A stretch of 64,000 bases of DNA from a virus: IMG/VR virus record IMGVR_UViG_3300021964_007043. One strand, given 5' to 3'. The position numbers were made by a program, and so were the translations under genes. Shown in pieces: positions 24,928 to 63,510 of the stretch. Numbering within the stretch: position 1 is the stretch's first letter; every line of letters starts with the position of its first letter. Under the pieces are notes generated by a model, which worked only from the letters and a program-made list of their open reading frames with translations, made no database searches and was not told the origin of the DNA.

Positions 24928-25275
24928 ATGGACGAAAAACTTTCCAAAGCACTAGACTTTGCAAACTATACCAGAACATTTGAAGATCAAAAAACTCAAA
25001 TCAAAGAAAAGTACTTTGATAGTTTAGTGTATTTTTATAATGGCGGCCAGTTTACTGTTGATAAAACACTAGTAACTTTTGTTAGTTTACTTAGTAGTAA
25101 ACAAGAGTCTGCTATACTAATCGATGACAATGACAATCCTCTTAAAATAGACAACCTACAAGATTTTCTTGATTCTATTTTAGATTTGTATTTCCAATCT
25201 TCTAATGCATATTTTACAAAACTTACTGAACTTAAAACTAAACGGTCTATAGAAAAACTAGTAGAATATGACTAA
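24928..25275 (+). CDS. Hypothetical protein (115 aa), first gene of the glycosyltransferase module
   Basis: Intact ORF with promoter and SD. No catalytic motif recognised. Confidence 0.7.
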   Translation: MDEKLSKALDFANYTRTFEDQKTQIKEKYFDSLVYFYNGGQFTVDKTLVTFVSLLSSKQESAILIDDNDNPLKIDNLQDFLDSILDLYFQSSNAYFTKLTELKTKRSIEKLVEYD

Positions 25276-26104
25276 GGGATATTTGCTTATTGCACAAAAC
25301 AACAGTGCAAATAACTATGTAAAACAAGCAGTATATTGTGCAAAGCGAATAAAGAAGTTTTGTAACAATGCTTCTGTATCTATTGTGACTAAAGATACAG
25401 ACTATTTAGAAAAAAACTTTGACAGTTCAATATTTGATTATGTCATTGACGGTACTGTTCTACCTTCAAGAACTAACAACAGAATAATATTTGATGGTGC
25501 GTTGTCTAACAAAACAGTTCAGTGGAAAAATGTTGGAAGAGATATGGCGTACGATCTTACGCCATACGATGAAACTATTCTATTAGACACTGATTACATA
25601 TTTTCTAACAACTTATTAGATCAATGTTTTGGTAGCGTTAACGATATTATGATGTATAAAAAGTCAGAATATTTAGGATATATAAAAACAGACGAGTTTA
25701 AAAGATGTAGCGATCAAAGTATTGATTTTTATTGGGCAACGGTAATTTATTTTAAAAAGAATAATAACACAAAAATATTTTTTGATCTAGTATCTCATCT
25801 ACGAGAAAACTGGTCTTACTATAACTCACTTTACCAGATAAGTAGTCCTAACTTTAGAAATGACTTTGCATTTAGTATGGCTATACACATAATGAATGAT
25901 ATGAAGTCAGGATCTTTTATGTCTGAGTTACCTGGTAAGATGTATTATATAAAAGATCAAGATTTTTTACATAATATTAAATCCGATAAGATGACATTTT
26001 TGTTAGGTAAAAAAGATCACCTAGGAGAATATACACTTTGTTCCACGCAAGGATTAAATGTCCATGTTCTAAATAAAGCAAGTTTGGAGAGAGAAATTGG
26101 ATAA
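25268..26104 (+). CDS. GT-A fold nucleotide-diphospho-sugar transferase-like protein
   Basis: PYDETILLDTDYIF carries the DxD motif in GT8-like context. Paralog of the next gene. Confidence 0.65.
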   Translation: MTKGYLLIAQNNSANNYVKQAVYCAKRIKKFCNNASVSIVTKDTDYLEKNFDSSIFDYVIDGTVLPSRTNNRIIFDGALSNKTVQWKNVGRDMAYDLTPYDETILLDTDYIFSNNLLDQCFGSVNDIMMYKKSEYLGYIKTDEFKRCSDQSIDFYWATVIYFKKNNNTKIFFDLVSHLRENWSYYNSLYQISSPNFRNDFAFSMAIHIMNDMKSGSFMSELPGKMYYIKDQDFLHNIKSDKMTFLLGKKDHLGEYTLCSTQGLNVHVLNKASLEREIG

Positions 26105-26930
26105 AGGTATTTTATTAGTTGCACAAAATAATAAAGATGACAACTATGTAGAGCAAGCATCTGCACTAGCAATGAGTTTAAAAAAGTTTAACAACGTATC
26201 AGTATCCTTAGTTACTGACGACGATGTTTCTTCGGTCGAAAAATATTTTGATAATATCTATCCTATTGCTTGGGGAGATATGGCAAGCGAAAGCGACTGG
26301 AAAGTAGAAAATAGATGGAAGGTTTTTCATCAAACACCATACAAAGAAACAATAGTTATGGATACGGACATGCTAGTTTTTCAAAATATTGATAACTTAT
26401 GGAACTTCTATTCTAACTATGATTTGTTCTTTACTACTTCACCTGTTACATATAGAAATGAAGCAGTAGATTCTAACTATTATAGAAAAATGTTTGTTGA
26501 AAATAATCTTCCTAATATCTATTGTGCATTGTACTACTTTAAGAAAACAGAGTTTACGCACAACTTTTTTGCATACTTAGAACTAGTAATAAAAAACTTT
26601 AAAGATTTTCAAAAAGAACTTTGCCCAAAACTAATACAAGAGCATGTAAGTATGGATGTTGCTATAGCAATGACAGTTAAGTTGATGGGAATAGAAAATC
26701 AAGTTACGAATAAAAAGAATATGTTGTCTAAGTTTGTACATATGAAACCTTATGTACAGAACTGGCACAAGCATAGAAATAGCTGGCAAAAAACTGTTCC
26801 TTCTTTTTTAACAAAAAATATAGAACTTTTTGTAGGCGGTTATAAACAAGATGGTATTTTTCATTATACCGAAAAAGATTTTTTACATAATGTCGGTGCC
26901 TTAACAAAACTAGGAGACACATATGTCTGA
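26097..26930 (+). CDS. GT-A fold nucleotide-diphospho-sugar transferase-like protein (paralog)
   Basis: PYKETIVMDTDMLVF DxD motif, late FVHMK His. N-terminus KGILLVAQNN matches KGYLLIAQNN of 25268. Confidence 0.65.
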   Translation: MDKGILLVAQNNKDDNYVEQASALAMSLKKFNNVSVSLVTDDDVSSVEKYFDNIYPIAWGDMASESDWKVENRWKVFHQTPYKETIVMDTDMLVFQNIDNLWNFYSNYDLFFTTSPVTYRNEAVDSNYYRKMFVENNLPNIYCALYYFKKTEFTHNFFAYLELVIKNFKDFQKELCPKLIQEHVSMDVAIAMTVKLMGIENQVTNKKNMLSKFVHMKPYVQNWHKHRNSWQKTVPSFLTKNIELFVGGYKQDGIFHYTEKDFLHNVGALTKLGDTYV

Positions 26931-27510
26931 TAGTATTTTAGATTTGCTTTCAAAGTTGAAAGTTGAGAATACACAAAAACAACAACATTATGTTTATTAC
27001 AACTCTGATACAATGGCTATAACAAAAATATCTCCAGTAAAAAAAGATTCGGAATATAAAGTTTTTGCTATAGATTCAGAAAGAGTTGAATCTATATTAT
27101 TAGGAACATCTAAACTTGACGATTACATAGTATTTTTTGATTACAATACTAAAGACTATAATATCAAAAAGAAAAAATCCCAAAACATAGACACTATTCC
27201 TTTAATTGAAGTAGGAGAAAAGTTATCTAACTTTGATTTAGAAGTCGTGTTAACATTAACTAATATTGCTTTTGTAGTTAACCGAGATCTTATCGAACAT
27301 ATTAAAGATGATACAGGAACAATGATGTTTGTGTTTACAGAACAAAATAATCCTTACAAAATGTATTCAAATATTGAAATACAAACAAAAGATCTACTCG
27401 ACAACAATGCTTATGAGCATCACTTAACACCGCAGCAAATAGAAAATGGTGTAAGTATATACACAAATAAAATATTTGAAAAATATAGCCTTGAGGTAAC
27501 TAATGACTAA
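26923..27510 (+). CDS. Hypothetical protein (195 aa)
   Basis: Intact ORF, GGAG SD, 8-nt overlaps with both neighbours. No motif recognised. Confidence 0.7.
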   Translation: MSDSILDLLSKLKVENTQKQQHYVYYNSDTMAITKISPVKKDSEYKVFAIDSERVESILLGTSKLDDYIVFFDYNTKDYNIKKKKSQNIDTIPLIEVGEKLSNFDLEVVLTLTNIAFVVNRDLIEHIKDDTGTMMFVFTEQNNPYKMYSNIEIQTKDLLDNNAYEHHLTPQQIENGVSIYTNKIFEKYSLEVTND

Positions 27511-28444
27511 AAAATTCCGTCCAGTAGAATACGACATCATATATCTTTCTTATGATGAACCTAATGCAGAAGAAAACTATGCGGACTTGTGTAGTAAAGT
27601 ACCTTGGGCAAAACGTGTACACGGAGTAGAAGGATCAGATGCCGCACACAAAGCCTGTGCAGAACTAAGTGAGACTGACCGTTTTATCACAATCGATGGT
27701 GATAATAAAATCCGTGATGGGTTTTTAGACCAAGAAATTGATATTGAAGATTTTCAAGTTTTAGAAAGCAGTGTTATTAGTTGGTGCGGACAGAATGTAA
27801 TCAATAATCTTATGTACGGCAACGGCGGTATCAAATGCTGGCCCAAAGAATATGTGCTTAAAATGCGTACACACGAAAACGCAGACCCAAATAACAAACA
27901 AGCACAAGTAGATTTTTGCTGGGACGTAAACTACATTCAGCAAAATAGTTGTTTTTCAGATGTATATAATAATGCTACTGCACAACAAGCATGGAGAGCA
28001 GGTTTTCGTGAAGGTGTAAAAATGGCATTAGATAGAGGTATTAAAGTTGAAAGTGCAGAAGCTCTACGCAACAGCCATTGGAAAAACTTACATAGATTGT
28101 ATATCTGGACAATGTTAGGTGCAGACGTTGAAAACGGCTTGTGGGCAGTATACGGCGCTAGAGAAGGCCTGTACAAAACTATGTGTACAGATTGGGATTA
28201 TGTAAATGTACGTGATTTTAAATATTTGAATAATCTATGGGATACCAAATACAGTAAAATTACAGAAGAAAGTTTACGTTATGAAATAATGGGTCTAGGC
28301 GAAACACTAAAGTATGAACTTGACATTCCTATTGCAACAGATCCTCTTGATCCTGAACAGAGCAAGTTTTTTAAGACAGTTTATATTAATCCTTCACGCA
28401 ACTCTAATAAGCTCATTGATGTAGAAGATGGTGCAAATGGATGA
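27503..28444 (+). CDS. GT-A-like glycosyltransferase
   Basis: YDIIYLSYDEP...RVHGVEGSDAAHKAC...FITIDGDN (DxD). Paralog of 32887-33561. Confidence 0.55.
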   Translation: MTKKFRPVEYDIIYLSYDEPNAEENYADLCSKVPWAKRVHGVEGSDAAHKACAELSETDRFITIDGDNKIRDGFLDQEIDIEDFQVLESSVISWCGQNVINNLMYGNGGIKCWPKEYVLKMRTHENADPNNKQAQVDFCWDVNYIQQNSCFSDVYNNATAQQAWRAGFREGVKMALDRGIKVESAEALRNSHWKNLHRLYIWTMLGADVENGLWAVYGAREGLYKTMCTDWDYVNVRDFKYLNNLWDTKYSKITEESLRYEIMGLGETLKYELDIPIATDPLDPEQSKFFKTVYINPSRNSNKLIDVEDGANG

Positions 28445-29598
28445 GCGAAAGTTCAAGACCCTATAGTAAACTATCTGATGGTAGGACTGTAGATCCTTTG
28501 TTTGGACCTGTATGGATCAAAGAAACAAAGGGAATGGAATCATCAAAAAAAGATCTATCCGGAAAGTATTGTAATAAACTTTATACATGGTTAGAGTTTG
28601 ATATGTTTGGCAAAGCATGGATGTGTTGTCCAAGTTGGTTACCTTATCCTATAGGTAATGTGCTAACACAAACATTAGACGAAATATGGAACGGCAAAAG
28701 AGCTCAAGAACTACGAAATCAAATATTTACAGGAGATTGGAAGTATTGCCAACACGAGTTTTGTCCTCTTATTGCAGGTGATAATCTACCTAATCTTAAT
28801 ACTATAGATAATCCTCCAACAAGTACAGTTGCAGATCTTCCGACTATGTTTAACTTTTCAAATGACGAAAGTTGCAATCTTCGCTGTCCGAGTTGTAGAG
28901 TTGATAAACTTCTTTATACTGAAGGTCCATTGTACGACAGACGAAAAGAAGTAAATGACAAAATATTTAATATGTTATTTAAAGAGCCAACTGATAGGCA
29001 TTTTAGTATACATGTAACCGGAAGCGGCGATCCTTTTGCAAGCAAAATATATAGAGATATGTTACAAAAAATAGATGGGGACCTTTTTCCTAACCTAGAA
29101 GTTAACTTACAAACTAATGGTACAATGTTTACTCCTACAAATTGGAGACGTATATCTAAAATACATAAAAATCTAAGAAGGTGTGCTATTAGTTTTGATG
29201 CTGGAACAAAAGAAACATATGAAAATAAAACTCGTCTAGGAGGCGATTGGGATCTACTAATAGAAAATTGTAAATATTTAGATAATAAGGTGTTAGAATA
29301 TCCTAACTTTAAAATAGCATATGACTTTGTTGTACAATCAGATAACTATACTGAAATGAGACGGTATATACGTTTAATAGAGAATCAACTTCCTAATGCA
29401 GAAAGTATTAACTTTAGTCTTGTAACCGACTGGGGCACTTGGCCTAAAGAAGTGTACGAAGAAAAATGTATATGGAAGGATAGTCATCCAGAGCATAGTA
29501 AACTATTAACAGTTTTACAAGATAACATATTCAAAAATCCTAAAGTTCGTTTAGGAAATCTTAAGCCTATTTGGAAAAAAGCAAATGGACTTCGATAA
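28441..29598 (+). CDS. Radical SAM protein with N-terminal SPASM/Twitch-type Cys cluster
   Basis: CNLRCPSC (CxxxCxxC), GSGDPF, LQTNG. N-terminal CNKLY...GKAWMCC...C...C. Confidence 0.85.
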   Translation: MSESSRPYSKLSDGRTVDPLFGPVWIKETKGMESSKKDLSGKYCNKLYTWLEFDMFGKAWMCCPSWLPYPIGNVLTQTLDEIWNGKRAQELRNQIFTGDWKYCQHEFCPLIAGDNLPNLNTIDNPPTSTVADLPTMFNFSNDESCNLRCPSCRVDKLLYTEGPLYDRRKEVNDKIFNMLFKEPTDRHFSIHVTGSGDPFASKIYRDMLQKIDGDLFPNLEVNLQTNGTMFTPTNWRRISKIHKNLRRCAISFDAGTKETYENKTRLGGDWDLLIENCKYLDNKVLEYPNFKIAYDFVVQSDNYTEMRRYIRLIENQLPNAESINFSLVTDWGTWPKEVYEEKCIWKDSHPEHSKLLTVLQDNIFKNPKVRLGNLKPIWKKANGLR

Positions 29599-30862
29599 AA
29601 CACCAAAAGAAATATATAAAGCTACAAAGCATTATTGCCCGTTGCTATGGAATCATTTGCATATAAACACCGAAGGTGATGTACAGCCTTGTTGTATGGC
29701 ACCTTTTGGTACAAGTTTAGGAAATATAAACGAAAAACCTTTAGATGAAATTTGGAATGGTCGTGCTATGAAAAAAGCACGTAGACGCTTGCTAAAAGAT
29801 ATGCCGTTAAGCACATGTACCGGTTGCTATGAAAAAGAACGCAGTAGTGATTGGAGTTTGAGAAAAGCAAGTATAATGAAATATCACGACAGCGTCAAAC
29901 CTTTATTAGAAACTACATTTGAAGATGGTGCAAGTTTAGATAGTAAACCTACATATTGGGATATACGTTTTTCAAATATATGCAATATGCGTTGCAGAAT
30001 GTGCGGACATTTTAGCAGTAGCAAGTGGTTTGCTGATGCAAAAAAACTAGCAGAAGAATATGATAATCCGGGTTACCTAGGAAATAAAGACAGAGCTATT
30101 ATTCATGCTGTAGAAGATACAGAAGGATTGCTTTCAAGATTAGATGAGTATCTGCCGCATATACAAGAAATATATTTTGCAGGCGGCGAACCTATGATAA
30201 TGGAAGAACATTATCGTATACTTAAAAGATTATCTAAACTAAAACTTTACAATACTTTTATTAGATACAATACAAACTTTTTGCAGTTATATTACAAAGA
30301 CAAAGATATTTTAGAGTTATGGAAAGACTTTAATAATGTACATTGTACAATAAGTGTTGATACTTACGGAGAGAGAGCTGAGATACTAAGGCATGATACT
30401 GTATGGTCCACAATAGAAGATAATGTAAAACGTGTAAAAGCAGAAGCGCCGCACATTAGATTTAATATCGCACCAACTATACAGATACTTAATGTTTTAA
30501 CTATTCCAGAACTACACAAGCAATGGTGCCAAAAAGGATGGCTAAAGCCAAATGATTTATTTTTAAACATTTTACATGATCCTAGTTTTTATAATATAAA
30601 AGCATTACCGCAGCATCTAAAAGAACAAGCAAAACAAAAGTTTGAAGAACACATTGATTGGTTATCAAAAACCTATACAGATAACTTGTATAGTGTAAAA
30701 AATACAATAAATAACTCTATAAACTATATGATGAGTGAACAACTAGAAGAAGAAAGACTGTACGAAATGTGCAAACAAACTAAACAGTTAGATATAATAA
30801 GAAACCAAAATACACCTGCTACATTTCCTGAACTTGAATACATATGGAGTAACTATGCTTAA
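29585..30862 (+). CDS. Radical SAM protein with N-terminal Twitch domain
   Basis: CPLLWNHLHINTEGDVQPCC...CTGC, then NICNMRCRMC, YFAGGEP, RYNTN. Confidence 0.9.
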   Translation: MDFDKTPKEIYKATKHYCPLLWNHLHINTEGDVQPCCMAPFGTSLGNINEKPLDEIWNGRAMKKARRRLLKDMPLSTCTGCYEKERSSDWSLRKASIMKYHDSVKPLLETTFEDGASLDSKPTYWDIRFSNICNMRCRMCGHFSSSKWFADAKKLAEEYDNPGYLGNKDRAIIHAVEDTEGLLSRLDEYLPHIQEIYFAGGEPMIMEEHYRILKRLSKLKLYNTFIRYNTNFLQLYYKDKDILELWKDFNNVHCTISVDTYGERAEILRHDTVWSTIEDNVKRVKAEAPHIRFNIAPTIQILNVLTIPELHKQWCQKGWLKPNDLFLNILHDPSFYNIKALPQHLKEQAKQKFEEHIDWLSKTYTDNLYSVKNTINNSINYMMSEQLEEERLYEMCKQTKQLDIIRNQNTPATFPELEYIWSNYA

Positions 30863-31391
30863 ACCGATTAAACTTGATTATGATTTTAGCATCTTCTTAG
30901 ATGCAGATTATAGCGTACACGAAGGTAGCTGTATAGCACACCAAGTTCATGAGTTAACAGACATACATGAAGAATATGGTGGTTTTCCAGATAGCTATGA
31001 AAGTGAGAATACGAAAATAAGACAGTTGTGGTGGAACGAATCACAAGTAGACTTTGAAAAGATAGGTCAGCAACTTGATATGCAAGTTGTAACAGTTAGT
31101 TCAATATTGCAACCTCCAGGAAATACTATTCCTATTCATAGAGATACTTTTTTTCAGATTAACAAACGATATCCTGATGATACTAGATTAAAAGTAAGAG
31201 CTAATATGTATCTTGAAGATTGGAAAGTAGGACATTTTCTACAGTATCAGGATGCAGATAAAGAATGGTATAACAGCACTCATTGGAAACAAGGTGAAGG
31301 TTGGATGTGGGATAGTAAACACTTGCATCTTAGTTCTAACGCAGGAATGAAACCAAAGTATACTTTACAAGTAAGTGGATTTTTAAATTAG
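30855..31391 (+). CDS. Fe(II)/2OG-type oxygenase (AspH/cupin-like)
   Basis: PPGNTIPIHRD (HxD)...HLSSNAG...KYTLQV. Start moved to the ATG at 30855 (GGAG SD). Confidence 0.7.
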   Translation: MLKPIKLDYDFSIFLDADYSVHEGSCIAHQVHELTDIHEEYGGFPDSYESENTKIRQLWWNESQVDFEKIGQQLDMQVVTVSSILQPPGNTIPIHRDTFFQINKRYPDDTRLKVRANMYLEDWKVGHFLQYQDADKEWYNSTHWKQGEGWMWDSKHLHLSSNAGMKPKYTLQVSGFLN

Positions 31392-32810
31392 TTTTTTGCC
31401 TCTTACTTTTTTAAGTTCTGTAATCCAAAATCTAGGTGCCCGATTTGCATAATATAGATATAACTCTTGATTGTAGTCAAGTGTATCTTGCATTTCTTCC
31501 CACATAGTATCACACTCTTGTATAGACATATTGTCTATACGCCTAATAACACGCATGATTTTTTCAATATGTATTTTAACATCACCTTCTTCTGCAAAAT
31601 CTTCGTTCCACCAACGATCGAAAGTTTTGAATCCTAGTCGATGTAACTCGTCATATAACCCGGGATTAGCACTTGTAATAAACGGACGTCTAGCAAGTAT
31701 AGGTTTACATATTTTTTCTGTTATAAACAAATCGTTATGATATGGGCCTTCTCTTTCGTTATATGTTTCACAACTTATATCTATAAACGCTCTAGAATAA
31801 TGTGTTGGATTTGGCAACCAAAACCATTTTAAATGATGATAGTCGATATTTCCTTCTTGTATTTCTTTTGGAAATGTATTAATAGGAAGTTTATGGTATA
31901 ACTCTATCATATTTTCGATATCAGTTCTGTGATAGTGCGACCTTTTGAACAATCTTTGCTGATATGCTTGGTGATATTGCATTATTTCTTTTATTTCTAC
32001 TTCAGGATCAACCATATCAGTGGGTTTTGATATTTTCATCCACAAGTGTTCAGGTTGTACTATTTTTTGTAGTTTTGACAGGTAAGTATATCTAGCAGGA
32101 CGAAATCTTCCTGAATAACACAAAAATCTTCCTTTTTTAAACAAGGGCTTTCTTTTAGATAATCTTATTATTTCGTTTATATGCTTTTTAGTCATTGTAT
32201 AAGATACAAACTGCATCCAATGACTGCACGAAAGAAATACTAACCAATCTGGAATATTATATACTGAGTTTTCGTATATTGATTTTGTGTTTGCATGAGA
32301 ATCTAAGAACACAAATCTGTTTTCTAGTTTGAATTCTTTACGTTTTACTATTAAACTTGGTATTGTAACAAAGTCTCTGCTACTTACTGCTTTTGCTTCG
32401 TGAGCATCATGAAAAACTATAGCACAATCTTTATGTTTCTGCAACCATTCTATTGTTTCGTTGGGCAAGTTTCCAAAAGGACAAAGGTTTTTGTAAGTAA
32501 AAACTTGGTCATCGTTTGCAACCAATCTAATAGGAAATATGTTTATATCTTTAGGATCATAGTTTCTAAAATCTTTGTTGATAAATCTTACTTCAGTTTG
32601 TGTATAAAAGTCTACCCAACTATGCCATTCAGGATCTGATCTAAAACTATATCTACCAATCTCGTCTTCGCTTTTGTTATCATCCATTTCTCGTATAGTC
32701 TGTAGCACACTCATAGTTTGGAGTTTTTTCCACGGGAAATAGTTTGACAAATGTTTGTCAATATGGGGATTAGGTATATCGGATACGTACCATTGAATAA
32801 CTTTACTCAT
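31383..32810 (-). CDS. Glycosyltransferase-like protein (GT-B / GT10-exostosin-like C-terminus)
   Basis: AFIDISCETY...FITEKICKPILARRPFI...LHRLGFKTFD resembles the TEK motif of GT10-like proteins. Start moved from 32840 to the ATG at 32810, downstream of CATAAATA. Confidence 0.45.
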   Translation of the reverse strand: MSKVIQWYVSDIPNPHIDKHLSNYFPWKKLQTMSVLQTIREMDDNKSEDEIGRYSFRSDPEWHSWVDFYTQTEVRFINKDFRNYDPKDINIFPIRLVANDDQVFTYKNLCPFGNLPNETIEWLQKHKDCAIVFHDAHEAKAVSSRDFVTIPSLIVKRKEFKLENRFVFLDSHANTKSIYENSVYNIPDWLVFLSCSHWMQFVSYTMTKKHINEIIRLSKRKPLFKKGRFLCYSGRFRPARYTYLSKLQKIVQPEHLWMKISKPTDMVDPEVEIKEIMQYHQAYQQRLFKRSHYHRTDIENMIELYHKLPINTFPKEIQEGNIDYHHLKWFWLPNPTHYSRAFIDISCETYNEREGPYHNDLFITEKICKPILARRPFITSANPGLYDELHRLGFKTFDRWWNEDFAEEGDVKIHIEKIMRVIRRIDNMSIQECDTMWEEMQDTLDYNQELYLYYANRAPRFWITELKKVRGKKLI

Positions 32811-32817
32811 GCTTAGA

Positions 32818-32825
32818 TATTTATG
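32818..32825 (-). promoter_or_regulatory. T4-late-like box CATAAATA, 7 nt before ATG
   Basis: Minus strand reads CATAAATA-TCTAAGC-ATG. No SD. Confidence 0.5.
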
Positions 32826-32852
32826 TGCGTATATAACCATGAATGTTTGCTA

Positions 32853-32881
32853 TTGACAAAACCACCAATAAGTAGTATAAT
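32853..32881 (+). promoter_or_regulatory. Perfect sigma70 promoter TTGACA-17-TATAAT, leaderless
   Basis: -35 at 32853-58, -10 at 32876-81. The ATG at 32887 is only 5 nt downstream. Confidence 0.9.
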
Positions 32882-36431: not shown

Positions 36432-36438
36432 GTACAGT

Positions 36439-48952: not shown

Positions 48953-48981
48953 TATTTATTGATACAAAAACTATGTAAATA
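48953..48981. promoter_or_regulatory. Back-to-back T4-late-like boxes (ATAAATA on -, GTAAATA on +), each 5 nt before an ATG
   Basis: Minus: ATAAATA(48959-53)-CAAAC-ATG(48947). Plus: GTAAATA(48975-81)-TAACT-ATG(48987). 39-bp intergenic region with no SD on either side. Confidence 0.65.
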
Positions 48982-48986
48982 TAACT

Positions 48987-55948: not shown

Positions 55949-55956
55949 TGTAAAAA

Positions 55957-55964
55957 TATTTATA
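55957..55964 (-). promoter_or_regulatory. Exact T4 late promoter consensus TATAAATA, 8 nt before ATG
   Basis: Minus strand reads TATAAATA-TTTTTACA-ATG(55948). Confidence 0.65.
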
Positions 55965-56577: not shown

Positions 56578-56960
56578 TCAAATCTTCCATCTGTAGGTTT
56601 GCCGTTTTCAAATCTCCAGTTATGGTTATTTGACATTTTTCTTAGTTTGCCTTGATTAAACCAACAGCTTAAAAACGTTGCTAGACTTTCTTGATCCCAT
56701 CTAACAGTATAAGGTTTCGGGCTCCATGCCCTGTAAATAATATCATCCATGATAATATTTTCGCAGTCTTTTAGTTCTTTTACAAAACACCCAAAGAAAA
56801 CTACTTTATAGTCTCCTTTATATTCTTTTGCTTCCTTAGCAGTTAGTACAATACAATCTATATTGTGTTGATAAACACTATTTAAAAATGATTGTTTTGC
56901 GCTGTTACTTGCTACTACTACTAAGTTCTTAATGCTACACAGTTGGAATGCCAAGTCCAC
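56553..56960 (-). CDS. Hypothetical protein (up to 135 aa), start codon uncertain
   Basis: Fills the gap between co-oriented genes. No ATG near the 5' end (GTG 56960 or TTG 56954). Confidence 0.55.
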   Translation of the reverse strand: MDLAFQLCSIKNLVVVASNSAKQSFLNSVYQHNIDCIVLTAKEAKEYKGDYKVVFFGCFVKELKDCENIIMDDIIYRAWSPKPYTVRWDQESLATFLSCWFNQGKLRKMSNNHNWRFENGKPTDGRFEWLKELMH

Positions 56961-57921
56961 TTTTTGGATACCTCCATGGAATGTCTGTTAAGTCTTCGTA
57001 CATTTCTCTGTACAAGTTTTTCTTTCCTTTGTAGTGGCTGGGCATATTTGTGCAAGCCTCTATAAAGTTATTTTCTGCATAAGGATGCACCCATTTTAGA
57101 TCATCTTGTCCATAGTTAAATAATCTATATGCACCTTCATCTTGTAATCTACTAAACATAACTCTGTTTAAAATGTCTGGGTGTCTGTCCCATTGTGCAA
57201 ATCTTTTTTTAAAGTGTTCTACACATTCTAAATAAATCTTATTTTCACTTAATGGTTTAACACTGTTTATTCGTCTGTAACTTCCGCATACATTTACATG
57301 CCAGTAAGATAATGCTACTGGGTCGTACCCCATCATAGCAGTATATTGTAAAGACTGATTAACTTGCATTTCGCCTGTGCCTATTTCACCTGTAAATATA
57401 GTGTGGTCTTCTAGACCTAGTTCTTTTATTGCAAGTACTTTTGCTGTATATGGATTTTCAATCCAATACGGAAACTCTACTTTTGGTATAGTGTCTATTT
57501 TTACATATTCAACATCAAGTTTCATCTGATCTGCAATTTGTTTTACTATATTACTTTCAGTTGTTGTAGATATATCACTATATAAACTTACAGGTATAAA
57601 AGGAACATTATTTTTTATAAATGCATGTGCAAGTGCTGTACTATCTTTTCCTCCTGATAGAAATATAACGTTTTTATCAGTTGCGTATTTTTTAATGTTG
57701 TCTTCGAGTATTGCACGTAAAAAACTTGGGGCTATATCATATACTTTTTCTTTGGGTAATATTTTGTCTGAACTTTTTCTTTTAAGACCTGTTAAAGGAT
57801 GCCGATTGCTTACAGTCCAGCCGCCTAGAAACTTTCTTTCTTCGTAGAAGTCTTGATTTATCTTATTAGATTCACCAACTTCAAACTCGCAATAAAAATA
57901 GTCAATATTATTTAGGTTCAT
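56935..57921 (-). CDS. Stand-alone asparagine-synthetase C-terminal-like (AANH, ATP pyrophosphatase) protein
   Basis: VIFLSGGKDS PP-loop, IFTGEIGTGE, HPYAENNFIEACTNMP..YKGKKNLYR...RYPKSGLGIP. No N-terminal glutaminase domain. Confidence 0.8.
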   Translation of the reverse strand: MNLNNIDYFYCEFEVGESNKINQDFYEERKFLGGWTVSNRHPLTGLKRKSSDKILPKEKVYDIAPSFLRAILEDNIKKYATDKNVIFLSGGKDSTALAHAFIKNNVPFIPVSLYSDISTTTESNIVKQIADQMKLDVEYVKIDTIPKVEFPYWIENPYTAKVLAIKELGLEDHTIFTGEIGTGEMQVNQSLQYTAMMGYDPVALSYWHVNVCGSYRRINSVKPLSENKIYLECVEHFKKRFAQWDRHPDILNRVMFSRLQDEGAYRLFNYGQDDLKWVHPYAENNFIEACTNMPSHYKGKKNLYREMYEDLTDIPWRYPKSGLGIPTV

Positions 57922-58973
57922 AATTTGAAATCTTTAATGTCTAATACCTTTACAAAATCTTCAATCAGTATACGATATTTTTCTTGGAACTTAGATTGGA
58001 AATAAGGTTGCCAAAATCCCTCTTGTAGATGTGTTACATCATGTTGGACACGATAACATAAACGTTGTTTGGTATCTCCTAATCTTCGATGTAGTGTAAT
58101 ACTGTTATCAAAAAACAAAAAGTCTCCTTCATTCTGGTACCAATGATCGTAAACATATTTTTCAACAAAAAGATTTTTATTGATTTCTGCAAACACTTTG
58201 TCGCTATCTTCTTTACTCATACCCTTAATGCTATATACAGTGTTTACACTATAATGCAATCCTTTAATACCACCTGGACTTTGTATTACTAAAGGTATTT
58301 CAATATCATCTACAGGACACTGACTTGCTTTGCTTATTCTGTCCTGTTCTTCAATATATCCTGGATTAATGGCACCTTTAAGATATCTATGATGTATAAT
58401 CATGTCGTCTAGCTCAGATCTAAAACTTTCACTTACGTTTTCATAGTAATCTACAGTTTGAACAAATCCTGTACTTGTTCCTTTAACACCCTCTTTAGCA
58501 AAAAGTGCAATGCCGGGTGTAAAAGCTAATGTTCCTGCTTCGTTACTGTGCCATAATAAATCACCTTCTGCAAACATACCAGTAGGATTTCCGATTTCGT
58601 CTTTTTTACCGCTCACACGCATCATACTTCCTGATCGTGTAGGCTCTAGAACACGATCAATCGCTGCTAACAAATAATAATCATCTTCGCTAATATTAGG
58701 ATCTTTTTCTCTTACTTTTTTCCATAGTTCATCGTAGTTTAAGTTATAGCGTTTAGCCATATCATATCTAACAATATCTCTATTGCCGCCAAACTTTCTA
58801 ACCCATTTTTGTTGATCTTGATAATCTAAGTTAGTATTACGTATAATAACAACTAAGTTTTTTATATAAAGATCACCAATCTCCATCCATTCTTCATCTG
58901 TAATATGATTAAAATCTACACCGTCTACAAATACTCCATAACTTCCTAATCCTGGTATTTTACTTACTTTCAT
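57918..58973 (-). CDS. TauD/TfdA-family dioxygenase (HxN variant)
   Basis: GVFVDGVD...NLVVIIRN...LWHSNE...VYDHWYQNEGDFLFFDNSITLHRR. Start set at the ATG at 58973. Confidence 0.8.
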   Translation of the reverse strand: MKVSKIPGLGSYGVFVDGVDFNHITDEEWMEIGDLYIKNLVVIIRNTNLDYQDQQKWVRKFGGNRDIVRYDMAKRYNLNYDELWKKVREKDPNISEDDYYLLAAIDRVLEPTRSGSMMRVSGKKDEIGNPTGMFAEGDLLWHSNEAGTLAFTPGIALFAKEGVKGTSTGFVQTVDYYENVSESFRSELDDMIIHHRYLKGAINPGYIEEQDRISKASQCPVDDIEIPLVIQSPGGIKGLHYSVNTVYSIKGMSKEDSDKVFAEINKNLFVEKYVYDHWYQNEGDFLFFDNSITLHRRLGDTKQRLCYRVQHDVTHLQEGFWQPYFQSKFQEKYRILIEDFVKVLDIKDFKL

Positions 58974-59452
58974 ATGCATTCTTCCTTGTGATCTAAATCT
59001 TTATAAACATAACAGTTAGGCCCGAACTCCATTCCTTCGTCAAAAAACTCACTAGTTTTTTTAAATCCTACCTTTTCGTATGCCGGCAACGCTTCTTTTC
59101 TAGGTATACTCCAAATAGCTTTGCATTTTTCTTTTATTGCCTGACCGTGAAGTTCGCAGAACAAAACTCCGCTTACTCCTAGTTTTCTATATCGAGGATC
59201 TACCCAGATGCCTCTACTCCTGTACAAATCGTCTGTTGTTCTATGACCGCTATTTACACCTACTATTTCTCCGACTACATTATATACTGCAAAAAATGTA
59301 GGAGAATATTTTTTGTATATTTCCATATCAAATCCACCTTGATACATCATACTACTCATTGGTTTGATTTCACTGGTCCTATTAGGCCATAACTTTTCCT
59401 GCCAAAAAGGCAGTATAGTTTCAAAATCTACAACTCCGCTACGACCTTTCAT
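58970..59452 (-). CDS. GNAT-family acetyltransferase
   Basis: YRSRGIWVDPRYRKLGVSGVL (motif A R/QxxGxG/S), ALPAYEKVGF. Start at ATG 59452 with GGAGG SD and ATGA overlap. Confidence 0.8.
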   Translation of the reverse strand: MKGRSGVVDFETILPFWQEKLWPNRTSEIKPMSSMMYQGGFDMEIYKKYSPTFFAVYNVVGEIVGVNSGHRTTDDLYRSRGIWVDPRYRKLGVSGVLFCELHGQAIKEKCKAIWSIPRKEALPAYEKVGFKKTSEFFDEGMEFGPNCYVYKDLDHKEECI

Positions 59453-60105
59453 TTTGCCTCCAGGTGCTTTATTGTACACTTATAGTTATTCTCGGTTAAC
59501 GGTATGTTTAATACAAGTTGAACTGAATCGTCTACAAATGAAAACACACTATGTTCTTTTCTTGTGTTTATAAAGTAAGGTCTTCCAGGTTCTAAAGGAA
59601 TAACACGATCTTCGTATATAAACTTAAACTGGCCTTTATTGCAGTTATGACACATTGTAAGTATACGAAAACACGTTGCATTAAGTATTTTTCCGTCTCG
59701 ATGAGGCGGGAAAAAACCGCCCTTATTTAGGCGTATAAAGTGTGAACGTCCAAGAGTATCAAATATATCTAAAAGCGGCTGTATGACGCTTATATTGCTT
59801 GCAACAGGTGTTTTTACGTTGATATTAACTTCGTTTATGTTTGTATTATTCTGTTTGTTATACTCGAACAAGCTATCTAAATCTGGAATGCCGCTAAGAT
59901 TACCATCTAAACTTGTAACACTTAGTCCTTGTCTATTGTTAGGTTTTCTTGGGTTATATTGCTTCCAATCTTCAGAAAACTGGTTTAGTTCTTCTTTAAG
60001 TTTATTAACATTAAGACAAAAGTCTAGAGGAACAATGTCCCCTAGACTTGCTAAATGCAATAACAGATTTGAATCTGTATTAGTCAATAGTTTTACCTTC
60101 GACAT
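59449..60105 (-). CDS. AspH-like Fe(II)/2OG oxygenase
   Basis: RSHFIRLNKGGFFPPHRD...YFINTRKEHSVFSF...LVLN. Start moved from 60141 to the ATG at 60105. Confidence 0.75.
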   Translation of the reverse strand: MSKVKLLTNTDSNLLLHLASLGDIVPLDFCLNVNKLKEELNQFSEDWKQYNPRKPNNRQGLSVTSLDGNLSGIPDLDSLFEYNKQNNTNINEVNINVKTPVASNISVIQPLLDIFDTLGRSHFIRLNKGGFFPPHRDGKILNATCFRILTMCHNCNKGQFKFIYEDRVIPLEPGRPYFINTRKEHSVFSFVDDSVQLVLNIPLTENNYKCTIKHLEAK

Positions 60106-61105
60106 ATGTTGCAGTCGACCATTCCATGTTATTCTTAGCAAAATCTGTCAAATATGTTAAGCGTTCTTTAGTAACATATTTGTATAATGAATCCATAATG
60201 ATATTTGACTCGTCACCGAAGTACATAGGATAGTCACCTAGTTTGCTAACAAGATAAGCACGACTTTCGTCATTGGCCATCATGCGTTCAAAAGCATTAA
60301 TCACTTCTGCTGTATTAGCACCTGGATGCATAAACAAACCTTTTTGTAAACCATCTCTCCATACTGCTGCAAGAATATATGCTTCAAATACAGGACCCTT
60401 TGGCTCTTTACCAAACTCTTTAGTATATAGATCTACAGCCGTTGGAGTATCAGGCCAGTTGTAGTCTTGTACAAATCCATTGTCTGGTGTAAACATACCG
60501 TGATTGAATAAACGAACTGCTTCGCCTTCTTCTACCATTGGAGCAGTATTTTTAATATGTCTGCTTGCTGGCTCACGGATATATTTAAAGTCTCCACGCA
60601 ACCAAGCCTGTTGTGCTTCACCAGCACTCATTTTGCGAATAAAGTTAATGTTGTCCCAACCCTTTAGCATAGTCCATGCAAGTGTTTCTGGAACACAGCC
60701 AGAACAATCTGCTAGATTTAAAGTTTCGTTTTTCCAATCCCAATCTGATGCAACTGTTGTTGTGATATTGTATGGTTGTACAAGTACCGGCTCCCAATCT
60801 TTGAAACTCCAGTTTACATCTTCAATCAACCATGCATTGGCATTACCACCATGTGCAAGTAGAATAGTTTTTGGATCGTCTTTGTACTTTGTGTTAAAAG
60901 TTTCAAGTCCTACATTTCCTTTACCGCCTTTGATGTTTTCAACAATAACTCGTTCACCGAGATATTTTTCAAGTTCAGCGGCTACAACATCTCCCCATAT
61001 AGCGGTACCTGTGCCTTTAGGACTTGGTACTACGAGTCTGTAATCAGCCATTGCAGTCCCCACGGTTAAGAAAAGTGTCATAATTGCAGTTAGAATATAT
61101 TTCAT
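60080..61105 (-). CDS. tctC: Tripartite tricarboxylate transporter substrate-binding protein (TctC/Bug-like)
   Basis: Signal peptide (MKYILTAIMTLFLTVGTAMA), YRLVVPSPKGTGT...VIVENIKGGKGNVG. Adjacent to tctA. AGGAG SD. Confidence 0.7.
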   Translation of the reverse strand: MKYILTAIMTLFLTVGTAMADYRLVVPSPKGTGTAIWGDVVAAELEKYLGERVIVENIKGGKGNVGLETFNTKYKDDPKTILLAHGGNANAWLIEDVNWSFKDWEPVLVQPYNITTTVASDWDWKNETLNLADCSGCVPETLAWTMLKGWDNINFIRKMSAGEAQQAWLRGDFKYIREPASRHIKNTAPMVEEGEAVRLFNHGMFTPDNGFVQDYNWPDTPTAVDLYTKEFGKEPKGPVFEAYILAAVWRDGLQKGLFMHPGANTAEVINAFERMMANDESRAYLVSKLGDYPMYFGDESNIIMDSLYKYVTKERLTYLTDFAKNNMEWSTATYVEGKTID

Positions 61106-61122
61106 GTGTTTTTTTCTCCTTT

Positions 61123-62544
61123 TTATTTTCTAACATATTTTACTCCAGCGTAAGCTATTAAAAGTGTTAGGAGAAACAAACTTAAGAAAATTGGTCTCTC
61201 CATTAAACTAATAACATTATACAACGAAACCGTCTGTATTGTCAAGGCCTCAATCTTAGAAAATAAGATAAAAGCCAACAGCATCGCTGGTCTGTTTAGT
61301 TCAAATCGTTTGGAAAGTAGGCCAATCGTTGAACATACTGCCAATGTGGCAATATCATAGTATGTATGCGATACTTGATAACAAGCCCAACAAATAAGAA
61401 CAAGTATCAAAGGCGCATAAATTTTTGTAGGAATTTTTAGTAGCAGTATAATCGGTTTGCTTAATGCTACGCATAGTAAGCCTACTAGTACAGTGCCACC
61501 TAAAAATCCCGTTGCAAGATATTTATAAAAGTCGGTATCTGACTGTATAGAAACTGAGCCTAAATCAAAGTGTAGCAGATAAAAAATGCTTAGTATTACA
61601 GCCGCAAATGGTGTACCAGGAATACCAAACACAACAGTAGGTACAAAACTAGCCGCATGTACTGCATTGTTTGCACCCTCAGGACCAACTACTCCTGCAA
61701 TATTACCATATCCAAATTTTCTTTTTTGATAGGTAAATTTTGTTTGAGCATAACTTAACCAATCTGCAACTACACCATGCACTCCGGGAACTGCACCAAC
61801 TATTGCTCCTATTATGCCTCCCTGCAAACTTACACGCCAGTATTTTCTCCAAGCACCTATTCCTAGTTTTACTTGTTGCCAACTAGGATTAAGTTTTTGC
61901 ATTTTTGACTTTGAAAAGAACATATAAAAAAGTTCTGGCACTGCAAATATTCCACTTGCAAAAATAAGAACACTGATGCCATCTTTTAGATATTCTGTGC
62001 CAAAAGTTAATCTTGGAGCATTGTTTTCATCTATACCAACATAACCAAAAACAAATCCTATTAGGATACTCACAATACCTAAACCTATCTTTCCTTTTAC
62101 TAAAAAGATCACACAGGTAAGTGCAAGTATGTTAAGCATCAATAGTTCAGGTATGCCAAACACAAGAAGTAATTTGCTATACAATGGCATGAATAGGAAT
62201 ACTATACTACCAAACAACAAGCCACTAAATGTACTACTGGTAAAAGCTGCACTCAGAGCCATTGTAGCCTTGCCTTTTTGCGCCAGAGGATATCCGTCTA
62301 CAATAGTTGCGGCGCTTGAACTTGACCCAGGTATGCCGAGTAAGATACTACTCCATGTATCACCTGTGGTACAGGCTGCTATCATTGCTGTATAAAATGC
62401 AACACCTAGATAAGGATTGTCATAGAACAATGGAAAGAAAGCATATGATGTTAGAAGTGCTGTGGTAGGACCTGCTGTTGGAATCACACCAAAAACCAAT
62501 CCCCATAATACTCCTAGAACAATAATAAGTAGAACTTCTAACAT
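61123..62544 (-). CDS. tctA: Tripartite tricarboxylate transporter permease TctA
   Basis: Highly hydrophobic. GVIPTAGPT...ILLGIPGSSSSAATIVDGYPLAQKGKATMAL...GVVGPEGANNA...FVPTVVFGIPG are TctA signatures. Confidence 0.9.
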   Translation of the reverse strand: MLEVLLIIVLGVLWGLVFGVIPTAGPTTALLTSYAFFPLFYDNPYLGVAFYTAMIAACTTGDTWSSILLGIPGSSSSAATIVDGYPLAQKGKATMALSAAFTSSTFSGLLFGSIVFLFMPLYSKLLLVFGIPELLMLNILALTCVIFLVKGKIGLGIVSILIGFVFGYVGIDENNAPRLTFGTEYLKDGISVLIFASGIFAVPELFYMFFSKSKMQKLNPSWQQVKLGIGAWRKYWRVSLQGGIIGAIVGAVPGVHGVVADWLSYAQTKFTYQKRKFGYGNIAGVVGPEGANNAVHAASFVPTVVFGIPGTPFAAVILSIFYLLHFDLGSVSIQSDTDFYKYLATGFLGGTVLVGLLCVALSKPIILLLKIPTKIYAPLILVLICWACYQVSHTYYDIATLAVCSTIGLLSKRFELNRPAMLLAFILFSKIEALTIQTVSLYNVISLMERPIFLSLFLLTLLIAYAGVKYVRK

Positions 62545-62550
62545 ATTACT

Positions 62551-62579
62551 ATTATACTATAAAACTGAGGAAGTGTCAA
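62551..62579 (-). promoter_or_regulatory. Perfect sigma70 promoter TTGACA-17-TATAAT for tctA, leaderless
   Basis: Plus strand shows ATTATA at 62551-56 and TGTCAA at 62574-79 with a 17-bp spacer. The tctA ATG at 62544 is 6 nt downstream, no SD. Confidence 0.9.
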
Positions 62580-63510
62580 ATATTTTTGTGTAATTAACAA
62601 ATCCACAAAATCCATTCTTAACTAAACTAAACAACTCTCGAGGATAATGTTTATACATATTTTCCTCCATTTTATAATAAATTTCTAAATAAAAATCATC
62701 TGATGGATGAAAATGATCTGTTTTTGATTTGAATATAAGTTCAGGCCATTCGCTGTTTTTTAAAGCAATAGTATTACACACTCCTTTGTTTTGTTTACCA
62801 TAACTTAGCAAAGGGTGTGTTGCTTGACTTTTTATTAAAGGTAGGGTGCTATTAAAAAAAGTCCACATACCTTGTTTTCCTGTTTCTTCACCGTATAACC
62901 ACCAAATCATTTCTGTAGGAGGACACGGTATAACTACTTCTTTGTCCCAGTCTTCACCTATACAGTTTTCTATAGTTTTACGATATATCCAGCCATCTTT
63001 TTCAAGTTCGCCTAGTCCTCCTACAATAAACTGCTCATTTGGAATCTTATCAAACATACCCATGCTAATAAGGAACCCTCTACTCATATTACCTAGTTTT
63101 ACACTGTAATATTTCATTCGTTCTAAGCATTCGTCGTAGTCGGCTTCGAACCCAATCCAATCATAACCAAGATCATATGCTAGTTTCATACTTTTTTCTT
63201 TATAACTAGAATCAGCCCAAGGATAGTCTTCGTAATATATAGTAGCCTTTTTTCCGTTAGCATGAGCAGAACGTGCTACTATTTCACTATCACTTCCGCT
63301 TACAGGTATTGCTAGATGTAGATCTGGAAGAAGAGATGCAGCACTGATGCATTCTTCTCTAAAGGATTTAGATTCAATAGAAATATTATTTAATATTTGA
63401 TAATCAAACTTTTCTAGTTTTTCTGATTTATCTAAAAAACTCTTAAAGTTTGCATATGGAACATTATTAACAGACCACCATATGTGTTCTGGAAGATTTA
63501 CATATTTCAT
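62557..63510 (-). CDS. Second AANH / asparagine-synthetase-like protein with shortened PP-loop
   Basis: LAIPVSGSDSEIVARS (SGGxDS-like, one residue shorter), FIVGGLGE. No glutaminase domain. Confidence 0.5.
   Translation of the reverse strand: MKYVNLPEHIWWSVNNVPYANFKSFLDKSEKLEKFDYQILNNISIESKSFREECISAASLLPDLHLAIPVSGSDSEIVARSAHANGKKATIYYEDYPWADSSYKEKSMKLAYDLGYDWIGFEADYDECLERMKYYSVKLGNMSRGFLISMGMFDKIPNEQFIVGGLGELEKDGWIYRKTIENCIGEDWDKEVVIPCPPTEMIWWLYGEETGKQGMWTFFNSTLPLIKSQATHPLLSYGKQNKGVCNTIALKNSEWPELIFKSKTDHFHPSDDFYLEIYYKMEENMYKHYPRELFSLVKNGFCGFVNYTKIFDTSSVL

Follow-up and report, generated by a model that had tools for sequence, protein, structure and literature searches.

The 64,000-nucleotide (nt) stretch of viral DNA analyzed here, IMG/VR record IMGVR_UViG_3300021964_007043, is referred to as the window; all coordinates are those of the window, and features lie on the plus strand unless stated otherwise. 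Directly behind a group of tail-fibre genes, the window carries an island at 24928-63510, an unbroken block of 39 genes composed of 38 open reading frames (ORFs) of at least 80 amino acids (aa), named o01 to o38, and one 75-aa ORF (34402-34629). Most of the island ORFs overlap or nearly abut their neighbours, and the single apparent gap is filled by the 75-aa ORF. The G+C content is 28 to 39% along the whole window, with no step at either island border. A preliminary description of this DNA had reported about 40 contiguous ORFs that lack replication and packaging genes and begin right after tail-fibre genes. Both statements hold, since family scans of the island ORFs matched no replication or packaging family inside 24928-63510 and the fibre genes are confirmed by PHROG and Pfam fibre families. 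The island encodes proteins with glycosyltransferase (GT) folds, radical S-adenosylmethionine (SAM) enzymes and oxygenase-like proteins, which are described first.

Five island proteins have a GT fold, including two GT8-like, two GT-A and one GT-B protein, so that the five GTs named earlier are upheld at the fold level by profile, paralogy and model comparisons. Pfam gave no match for any GT candidate even at an E value of ≤10, and sequence and profile searches of PDB returned nothing for o05 and o09, nor for o11, o13, o21 and o38. The paralogous pair o02 and o03 (25268-26930; o02 at 25268-26104 and o03 at 26097-26930) encodes putative GT8-like (glycogenin-like) GT-A glycosyltransferases. A profile of eight sequences, comprising o02, o03 and six homologues, matched only glycogenins (GT8) in PDB, with E values of 4.6e-5 to 4e-3 over positions 13-116, and the matched N-terminal half holds a DxD motif whose residues, D107 and D109, are invariant in the family. 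A PHROGs search yielded nothing beyond one family of unknown function, which was matched by o03.

The most conserved cassette gene, o05 (27503-28444), encodes a GT-A-fold, GT2-like protein. Its AlphaFold2 model has a predicted local distance difference test (pLDDT) score of 83.6, and residues 2-179 match GT-A transferases with VIA Z scores of 9.5 to 8, among them STIV A197, B4GALNT1, SunS/ThuS, polypeptide GalNAc-transferases, LH3, COLGALT1 and Mimivirus R699. Nucleotidyltransferases of the same fold reach a Z score of about 8, and the fold therefore does not separate a transferase from a nucleotidyltransferase. BLAST identifies o10 (32887-33561) as a GT-A-fold paralogue of o05, and D65 and D67 are invariant in the family formed by the two; o10 also belongs to a module that is present in bacteria as well.

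The GT-B protein is o09 (31383-32840, minus strand; AlphaFold2 pLDDT of 83.9). Foldseek returned 50 matches at an E value of ≤1e-3, and those listed are GT-B enzymes; in the VIA comparison, all 50 rows are GT-B glycosyltransferases with Z scores of 12.4 to 8.6. The top structures are T4 beta-glucosyltransferase (Z score of 12.4), GtfC (11.1) and the Helicobacter pylori alpha-1,3-fucosyltransferase (11.0, at 11 to 12% identity). A possible assignment to GT10 was suggested by an Atlas lead scoring 0.80 and by the near-top rank of the fucosyltransferase; none of 16 members of the o09 family matched PF00852, and Pfam found no GT family in the 16 o09 homologues. The protein carries what we take to be a TEK-type motif, and this motif is present in two to three proteins per cassette among relatives. 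In one phage protein cluster, an o09-like domain is fused to a nucleoside diphosphate (NDP)-sugar epimerase/dehydratase. The N-terminal 440 aa of o19 may be a sixth GT, judging from Atlas structural leads to RgpF, GT25 and GMA12, whose template modelling scores are only 0.28 to 0.40.

Exactly 13 island ORFs match the Pfam Radical_SAM family, the number given in the preliminary description, and the CxxxCxxC motif is intact in all 13. Twelve score above the PF04055 gathering score; o14 falls below it (26.4 bits) yet reaches 414 bits against NF033640. This NCBIfam model, 'N_Twi_rSAM', describes twitch domain-containing radical SAM proteins and has a cut-off of 170 bits. Its full-length members in the island are five: o07 (29585-30862; 375 bits), o14 (36391-37842; 414 bits), and o16, o17 and o18 (38810-42479; 337, 358 and 411 bits, respectively). 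In these N_Twi proteins, a Pfam SPASM domain (about residues 6-113) precedes the Radical_SAM domain (from about residue 117), and invariant cysteines at 6, 24, 74 and 77 are followed by C121/C125/C128. The same domain order is found in o06 (28441-29598), a divergent radical SAM protein with an N-terminal SPASM/twitch-like region (SPASM at 44-104 and Radical_SAM at 145-281), but its NF033640 score of only 53.7 bits is below the cut-off, and it is not a member. Pfam also recognizes o13 (35355-36431), o15 (37842-38813; 37.6 bits) and o21 (45093-46208; 53.6 bits) as radical SAM proteins, and o21 and o15 show weak similarity to viperin and MoaA, which are nucleotide-acting radical SAM enzymes.

The other four radical SAM proteins appear to be of the B12 type. 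The divergently oriented o23 (minus strand) and o24 (plus strand) at 46935-51056 are KedN5-like, B12-binding radical SAM proteins by Pfam, and o27 and o28 (52388-55412) were likewise assigned by Pfam to the B12 type. The B12-binding domain PF02310 scores above its cut-off in o24 (37.2) and below it in o23 (28.5) and o28 (29.8), with no match in o27. All four fall under every NCBIfam subfamily cut-off: o23 and o24 reach 180 and 173 bits against NF033712, far under its cut-off of 700, and the best models for o27 and o28, also under cut-off, are PhpK-like and a C-methyltransferase of ribosomally synthesized peptides with post-translational modifications (RiPPs), respectively. A model of the methyl-coenzyme M reductase (MCR) glutamine C-methyltransferase is additionally matched by o28.

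A tree of 203 N_Twi proteins, in which the bacterial sample was picked by similarity to the window proteins, placed the five window paralogues in five clades, each with its own phage or bacterial orthologues and with supports of 0.95 to 0.99. Since these orthologues join before any two window copies meet, the five paralogues represent old subfamilies rather than recent duplicates. The NF033640 family as a whole comprises 7,550 clusters at 50% identity (E value of ≤1e-30). Many N_Twi proteins, among those numbered P0154-P0303, are tandem fusions of two or three radical SAM units with lengths of 790 to 1466 aa, and a recurrent N-terminal domain of about 140 aa with no assigned family precedes others. 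The C-terminal tail of one such protein, P0240, is GT2-like by motif, its best PDB match being ArnC with an E value of only 0.68. None of these extra fused domains matched anything in the island.

The nine oxygenase domains described earlier divide into four firm and five weaker assignments, and a total of nine is plausible. Scores above the Pfam gathering threshold were obtained for the AspH-like C-terminal part of the 635-aa o19 (42476-44383), the AspH-like o22 (46219-46938; 28.6 bits against a cut-off of 22.6), the P4H-type 2-oxoglutarate (2OG) oxygenase o25 (51049-51705; 27.3 bits) and the TauD/TfdA-family protein o33 (57918-58979, minus strand; 64.8 bits). Weaker support was found for o08 (30834-31391), an AspH-like cupin protein with a Pfam E value of 0.022 that is a paralogue of o22 (BLAST E value of 7.6e-11), for the AspH-like o26 (51693-52397; Pfam E value of 0.018) and for o35 (59449-60141, minus strand), which is distantly AspH-like (profile E value of 1.8e-4). 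The minus-strand ORFs o29 and o30 (55400-55948 and 55960-56577) carry only an HxD...H motif. Alignment revealed that o33 departs from the His-x-Asp...His triad, with Asn at the Asp position (WHSNE versus the WHTD/WHSD of TfdA/RdpA). Homologous stretches, 12 in total and spread over 11 IMG/VR contigs, all keep this Asn, and the His-x-Asn arrangement could mean that the metal site is unusual or that the activity is not that of an oxygenase. On at least 4 of the 11 contigs, the o33 homologue lies among GT and radical SAM genes of the cassette, at differing positions.

The cassette stands directly behind fibre genes on nine IMG/VR contigs, on two metagenome contigs and in the isolate Ralstonia phage RsoM2USA, with protein identities of 24 to 71%. 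The common order is a fibre gene, o01, o02, o03, a variable gene of the size of o04, o05 and then N_Twi radical SAM genes. Synteny with tail genes, proposed as a check in the preliminary description, thus held in each relative inspected, with the cassette always linked to tail-fibre genes. RsoM2USA has a minimal form of eight genes, ORF354-347, which correspond to o01-o05, one N_Twi radical SAM gene, o10 and o11; they are annotated as hypothetical, without discussion, in the paper on this phage (PMC8504454). A second N_Twi-like gene of RsoM2USA, ORF202 (126846-128228 of the RsoM2USA genome), lies far from the cassette among hypothetical genes. Of the 50,697 phage records searched, only RsoM2USA has o02 and o05. 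In metagenomes, the o05 family forms at least 8000 clusters with identities of 64 to 91%, Tara Oceans samples included. The 'moraphage' paper (PMC12619734) treats a different lineage.

The right half of the island and its right junction are reproduced on two further IMG/VR contigs (L107 and L108) at 55 to 83% identity; both lack o29, o30 and o33 and are otherwise collinear with it. A related 113-kb contig contains 14 radical SAM matches inside 41 kb, and islands of such size are normal for the lineage. The comparison of gene orders suggests a fixed core of o01-o05, o10, o11, o13, o14 and o21, with the remainder forming a panel that appears to gain and lose single genes. Since homologues of o33 occur elsewhere among GT and radical SAM genes, the minus-strand sub-operon at 55400-63510, which holds the transporter, TauD-like and GNAT genes, is assigned to the same system.

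Both junctions of the island recur on independent contigs, and the island is phage DNA rather than a chimera. A cellular locus, a chimeric assembly and families unlinked to structural genes had all been named beforehand as ways in which the description might fail; the recurrence of the junctions and of the fibre linkage in relatives speaks against all three, and the picture of a phage-borne block of the size of a biosynthetic cluster stands, with 39 contiguous genes. The phage probably has a jumbo genome of about 343 kb, because a protein identical to o09 is recorded on a contig of 343,488 bp that is probably the same phage. A near-identity DNA search with the fibre region found zero matches among the 50,697 phage records.

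Bacterial genomes encoding N_Twi proteins belong mostly to Bdellovibrionota. Many of these have a module of o10/o05, o11, o14, o13 and o21 whose members are 40 to 67% identical to those of the phage; the contigs that bear it reach 0.9 Mb, and a complete 2.9-Mb chromosome bears it too. Within this module, orthologues are 43 to 50% identical for o13, 55 to 58% for o14 and 61 to 67% for o21. A Bacteriovoracaceae chromosome has GT2 and PMT_2 genes right next to a set of ten radical SAM genes. Two other bacteria, unrelated to each other, provide deoxysugar contexts with macrolide-type GTs. In Poseidonocella sedimentorum (locus L088), two N_Twi and two B12 radical SAM genes stand with FdtA, an NDP-hexose 2,3-dehydratase, an EryCIII-like GT and a polyketide synthase (PKS), and a Vicinamibacterales locus (L109) has the same families along with a GFO/IDH/MocA oxidoreductase, a GT4 and two EryCIII-like GTs. 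The neighbours at a gammaproteobacterial locus (L110) were uninformative. The contig NZHE01000012.1 (L068, 'Rickettsiales MAG MED657', a metagenome-assembled genome [MAG]) and L073 ('Neisseriaceae MAG') carry orthologues of o13, o14 and o10 at 59 to 78% identity together with the lineage-specific 75-aa ORF, and both are apparently contigs from phages of this lineage that ended up in bacterial MAG bins.

The remaining genes of the cassette core are less readily assigned. The first, o01 (24928-25275), encodes a conserved 115-aa protein with no family match in Pfam or PHROGs, and its positional orthologues in the IMG/VR contigs and RsoM2USA are 27 to 49% identical. The 195-aa product of o04 (26923-27510) evolves fast; tblastn found no match in the relatives at 1e-5, and ORFs of 185 to 199 aa occupy the same slot. 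A conserved protein with orthologues in 20 bacterial loci is encoded by o11 (33554-34405); it is Rossmann methyltransferase-like by motif only, and its family holds invariant residues with no match in Pfam or PDB. The 75-aa ORF between o11 and o12 is 62 to 75% identical in four relatives, in which it always follows o11. Confined to the closest lineage, it is conserved more (74% identity) than o09 (50%) in the same relative.

Among the panel genes, o12 (34634-35368) is SGNH-like by the motif GCSHS, and o20 (44383-45081) is a weak SGNH-like candidate with the motif GCSFTSG and a DUF1574 match below the cut-off (E value of 6.9e-4). The minus strand carries o31 (together with o29 and o30 in 55400-56960), which has no family match, o32 (56935-57921), a PP-loop ATPase with SGGKDS and weak QueC, NAD synthase and Asn synthase matches, o34 (with o35 in 58970-60141), a GNAT acyltransferase with a firm Pfam match, and o38 (62557-63510), the last island gene, which has an SGSDS motif, no family match and orthologues of 68 to 69% identity in the same place. 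Even at an E value of ≤10, Pfam matched nothing in o01, o04, o11, o29-o31, o36 and o38. The acyl- and methyltransferases and ligases described earlier are thus firm for the GNAT protein and weakly supported for the PP-loop protein o32; the SGNH proteins, o11 and o38 as a second ligase carry motifs or sub-threshold matches only.

The transporter noted earlier was confirmed by a Pfam TctA match of 310 bits. The permease TctA is encoded by o37 and a TctC-like binding protein by o36 (60080-62579, minus strand); the latter has a Sec signal peptide and weak matches to Bug/TctC structures (E values of 0.008 to 0.09). TctB was not found, since the scanned ORFs of at least 80 aa include no second membrane protein and the gaps beside tctA measure 13 and 18 nt. 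Of the TctABC system, TctA is therefore present, TctC is represented by a weak likeness and TctB is missing from these ORFs. The tctA/tctC pair has orthologues of 78 to 83% identity in L107 and L108, and among the 50,697 phage records there was no credible isolated-phage record with a comparable TctA. TctA is the only transmembrane protein among the 38 ORFs and the flanks, where no Wzx-, Wzy- or phosphoglycosyl transferase-like protein was seen, and no Pfam family in the island corresponds to the hallmarks of an undecaprenyl phosphate-linked polysaccharide locus, namely, an initiating transferase, a flippase or polymerase, and an ABC exporter.

The left flank opens with the C terminus of a baseplate wedge subunit (1-483; phrog_10646, E value of 1.3e-35) and continues with a 5190-aa virion structural protein in one ORF (483-16055). 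The order of baseplate wedge and giant structural protein is common to the window, RsoM2USA and Atu_ph07, with positional equivalents of 2541 aa in RsoM2USA and about 4450 aa in Atu_ph07, and the RsoM2USA giant protein has been detected in virions by mass spectrometry (PMC8504454). The 5190-aa protein has only sub-threshold CBM_5_12 and FG-GAP matches and no internal repeats. The conserved gene after it is most closely related (53 to 54% identity) to genes of Sinorhizobium phage Phosso and Agrobacterium phage Atu_ph07, both jumbo myoviruses. Five tail-fibre-type genes follow (16685-24878; PHROG tail fibre/collar and Pfam Collar, Laminin_G_3 and Big_2), and their orthologues stand before the cassette in relatives too. 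Neither collagen-like Gly-x-y runs nor internal repeats were found in the fibre and giant proteins. The fibre domain of 22224-23156 was considered as a specific link to the cassette and rejected, as it also occurs in PA5oct-like phages without o02 and o05. At the right border, the C terminus of a gene (63530-64000, minus strand) is conserved at the junction in L107 and L108 (46 to 47% identity); the description of this inward-pointing gene as fibre-like found no match in any library.

Past the end of the PHROG profile, the baseplate wedge protein has about 55 further aa at its C terminus (300-483), in which a run of about 17 Ser residues predominates. This poly-Ser tail could be an O-glycosylation site. 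As an acceptor linked to the cassette it was rejected, since it is missing both in the cassette-bearing RsoM2USA and in Atu_ph07, and the two do not correlate.

Several promoter-like signals lie in the island. A sigma-70-like TTGACA-17-TATACT (24879-24907; consensus match only) is located in the 50-nt gap before o01, a perfect consensus TTGACA-17-TATAAT (32853-32881) ends 6 nt before o10, TTGACA-17-TACAAT (45059-45087) precedes o21, and a perfect TTGACA-17-TATAAT on the minus strand (62579-62551) precedes tctA. Strong sigma-70-type matches (11 to 12 of 12) number 6 in the window against 4.8 expected, a count not above chance, and it is their placement that stands out: all 6 lie inside the island, and 4 of them, set in its few short gaps, end no more than 25 nt from a same-strand start codon (o01, o10, o21 and tctA). 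TAAATA-like motifs precede two fibre genes, o23, o24, o29 and o38. The T4-type late promoter word TATAAATA occurs 4 times in the window against 13.6 expected and is thus rarer than chance.

We give about even weight to the proposal that the phage encodes, in this island, a cytoplasmic pathway that first builds a decoration based on sugar and afterwards edits it to a large extent. Gene content, folds, synteny and bacterial contexts were computed, and from them we infer each chemical step and the acceptor. A sugar-based product is the best supported because of the five GT folds, the bacterial deoxysugar contexts and the fusion of an o09-like domain to an NDP-sugar enzyme. The acceptor is probably cytoplasmic, as TctA is the sole transmembrane protein and there is no flippase, polymerase, initiating transferase or exporter among the island genes. 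Within the sugar-based proposal, we consider fibre or baseplate proteins of the virion the acceptor at a likelihood of about one half, the rest being split among other cytoplasmic acceptors; virion proteins lead the candidates for their gene order alone, that is, for the fixed position of the cassette behind fibre genes.

In such a pathway, the five GT-fold proteins would transfer sugars onto the acceptor within the infected cell. Radical SAM enzymes of the twitch type and the plain type would then abstract hydrogen from sugar carbons, which would lead to oxidation, epimerization, dehydration or C-C chemistry, the four B12-type enzymes would C-methylate, and the Fe/2OG enzymes would hydroxylate. 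The SGNH-like and GNAT proteins may acylate, and one or more PP-loop ATPases may amidate a carboxylate. TctA/TctC may supply the pathway with an imported carboxylate, which would serve as a building block or as a co-substrate such as 2-oxoglutarate, and the gain and loss of single genes in the panel would diversify the product between related phages.

Several observations weigh against a sugar product. Pfam scans matched no nucleotidyltransferase, 4,6-dehydratase, aminotransferase or short-chain dehydrogenase/reductase epimerase in the island, and with no match for nucleotide-sugar synthesis the host, or another part of the phage genome, would have to provide the donors. The N_Twi members of the bacterial deoxysugar loci are just 31 to 33% identical to those of the window, and the neighbours at the Bdellovibrionia locus with the closest orthologues (L090) were uninformative. 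If the promoter signals are real, part of the island would be expressed before the virion proteins, by the host polymerase. Among the characterized members of the oxygenase families seen here, AspH, P4H and the TauD-like hydroxylases of nonribosomal peptide synthetase (NRPS) systems hydroxylate side chains of proteins or amino acids. Furthermore, o28 has a RiPP C-methyltransferase as its top NCBIfam model, and several GT-fold matches are enzymes that glycosylate proteins or peptides.

The lack of nucleotide-sugar genes, the oxygenase families and these protein- and peptide-glycosylating matches keep the direct editing of proteins as a serious rival, which we nevertheless consider unlikely. Here, residues of virion proteins would be epimerized, C-methylated and hydroxylated, and the GTs would glycosylate the new hydroxyls, in a way reminiscent of LH3, a lysyl hydroxylase and glycosyltransferase of collagen, or of the proteusin (polytheonamide) pathway; the targets would be the fibres, the giant protein and the poly-Ser baseplate tail. 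AspH-like, P4H-like and TauD-like families are all present, o19 may fuse a GT-like to an AspH-like domain (a weak assignment), and the island adjoins fibre genes. The o05 fold matches LH3, COLGALT1, polypeptide GalNAc-transferases and the peptide S-glycosyltransferases SunS/ThuS, o09 matches the adhesin-glycosylating GtfC enzymes, and o28 matches the MCR glutamine C-methyltransferase model besides its best, RiPP-type model. SPASM/twitch enzymes are, moreover, commonly peptide-acting. However, the RiPP model scores are all far under their cut-offs, and the bacterial N_Twi contexts point to deoxysugars. No PqqD- or RiPP recognition element-type match was found in the island scans, which leaves room for an unrecognized precursor, and the only small conserved ORFs (115 and 75 aa) are helical-looking, not Cys/Ser-rich and not precursor-like. 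In addition, the fibre and giant proteins have neither collagen-like nor other repeats. Of the glycan-building pathway put forward in the preliminary description, sugar chemistry is the best-supported part, from the GT folds and bacterial contexts, and the oxygenases and o28 fit protein side-chain editing equally well.

Remodelling of the host envelope appears improbable. The enzymes would in that case edit lipopolysaccharide (LPS), capsule or another host glycan and thereby block superinfection or the trapping of progeny on debris. GT8 includes LPS core glycosyltransferases, and the AspH family includes lipid A/Kdo hydroxylases. Early expression by the host polymerase, as suggested by the sigma-70-type promoters before o01, o10, o21 and tctA, would suit such a role, as would the Bacteriovoracaceae radical SAM array beside GT2 and PMT_2 and the island's own periplasmic binding protein and permease. 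However, TctA is the only membrane protein, and neither a flippase, a polymerase or a ligase nor a phosphoglycosyl transferase or an exporter was found. Distant phages, whose hosts presumably differ (soil Ralstonia versus aquatic hosts), strictly keep the position behind fibre genes, and the gene-by-gene variation of the panel in close relatives fits a product owned by the phage better than a host-specific target.

A free small molecule that resembles an aminoglycoside, nucleoside or glycoside and is used in the infected cell or released is very improbable. The fixed position of the island behind fibre genes would be left unexplained, no PKS, NRPS or cyclitol synthase was matched in the island, and TctA/TctC is an importer family with no exporter found beside it. 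In favour of such a molecule are the cluster-like density and mix of enzymes, the occurrence of N_Twi and B12 radical SAM genes within glycosylated-polyketide clusters of two bacteria, the weak viperin/MoaA likeness of o21 and o15 and the presence of a transporter.

Hypermodification of phage DNA with an edited sugar is the least credible alternative: DNA-glycosylating phage GTs are known (cited in PMC12619734), and the best o09 match is T4 beta-glucosyltransferase (Z score of 12.4 versus 11.1 for the next family, with T4 alpha-glucosyltransferase also listed), but this match, at 8 to 9% identity, reflects the minimal GT-B fold, no hydroxymethylase, DNA-binding or base-flipping family was found in the island scans, and the island is linked consistently to fibre genes and not to replication or nucleotide genes.

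The sugar-decoration proposal can be extended, tentatively and with more doubt than confidence, to a glycan editor of the lineage. Its fixed core would decorate fibre or baseplate proteins with a sugar, which the rapidly reshuffled radical SAM, B12 and Fe/2OG panel would rewrite at one carbon after another, so that the virion surface would differ in its chemistry from phage to phage; NF033640 would then represent a novel class of radical SAM enzymes for carbohydrate editing that predatory Bdellovibrio-like bacteria also possess. If fibre decoration is correct, the island would represent a new phage route to vary or shield host-recognition organelles and would bear on the evolution of host range in abundant uncultured aquatic phages. 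The eight-gene version in the culturable RsoM2USA makes the question testable in the laboratory.

Among known systems, the closest at the level of single enzymes is the NF033640 family itself, a catalogued sequence model that o07, o14, o16, o17 and o18 match over its whole length. Our literature search found no characterized member and no paper on radical SAM enzymes with an N-terminal twitch domain, and a full-text search found none on radical SAM arrays in phage glycosylation cassettes; with its 7,550 clusters, the family offers many ready test cases for biochemistry. Compared with TctABC, the island has a full-length TctA (310 bits) with a TctC/Bug-like neighbour, and it differs in being phage-borne and without TctB. 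Aminoglycoside tailoring involves twitch- and B12-type radical SAM enzymes, such as BtrN, GenK and AprD4, whose targets are carbons of sugars or cyclitols. The island has sub-threshold matches to AprD4 and PhpK/KedN5-type models, with no cut-off reached, and it has no cyclitol or aminotransferase genes. The analogy with BtrN drawn earlier is a resemblance only, as the twitch domain is C-terminal in BtrN and N-terminal here. Proteusin (polytheonamide) clusters combine a radical SAM epimerase, B12 C-methyltransferases and an Fe/2OG hydroxylase; the island differs in having five GT folds and no precursor or recognition domain that could be found. The deoxysugar sub-clusters of the polyketide loci L088 and L109 resemble the island in their N_Twi pairs and B12 radical SAM genes beside GTs, and they carry FdtA, an NDP-hexose 2,3-dehydratase, an EryCIII-like GT-B protein and a PKS, none of which is present in the island.

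Glycosylation by viruses is known in chloroviruses, giant viruses and mycobacteriophages, and to our knowledge none of these systems has radical SAM arrays, B12-dependent methylases or some nine Fe/2OG oxygenases, or any radical chemistry at the scale of the island. For the present phage, glycosylation of the virion is a proposal from gene order; among the work cited in PMC12619734 is the glycosylation of the C termini of mycobacteriophage capsid and tail-tube proteins. In the systems of the PBCV-1 capsid (A64R), the Mimivirus fibril and the mycobacteriophages, the viral GT-A/GT-B enzymes are encoded near structural genes, as in the island, and in the structure comparison the o05 model matches PBCV-1 A64R, STIV A197 and Mimivirus R699.

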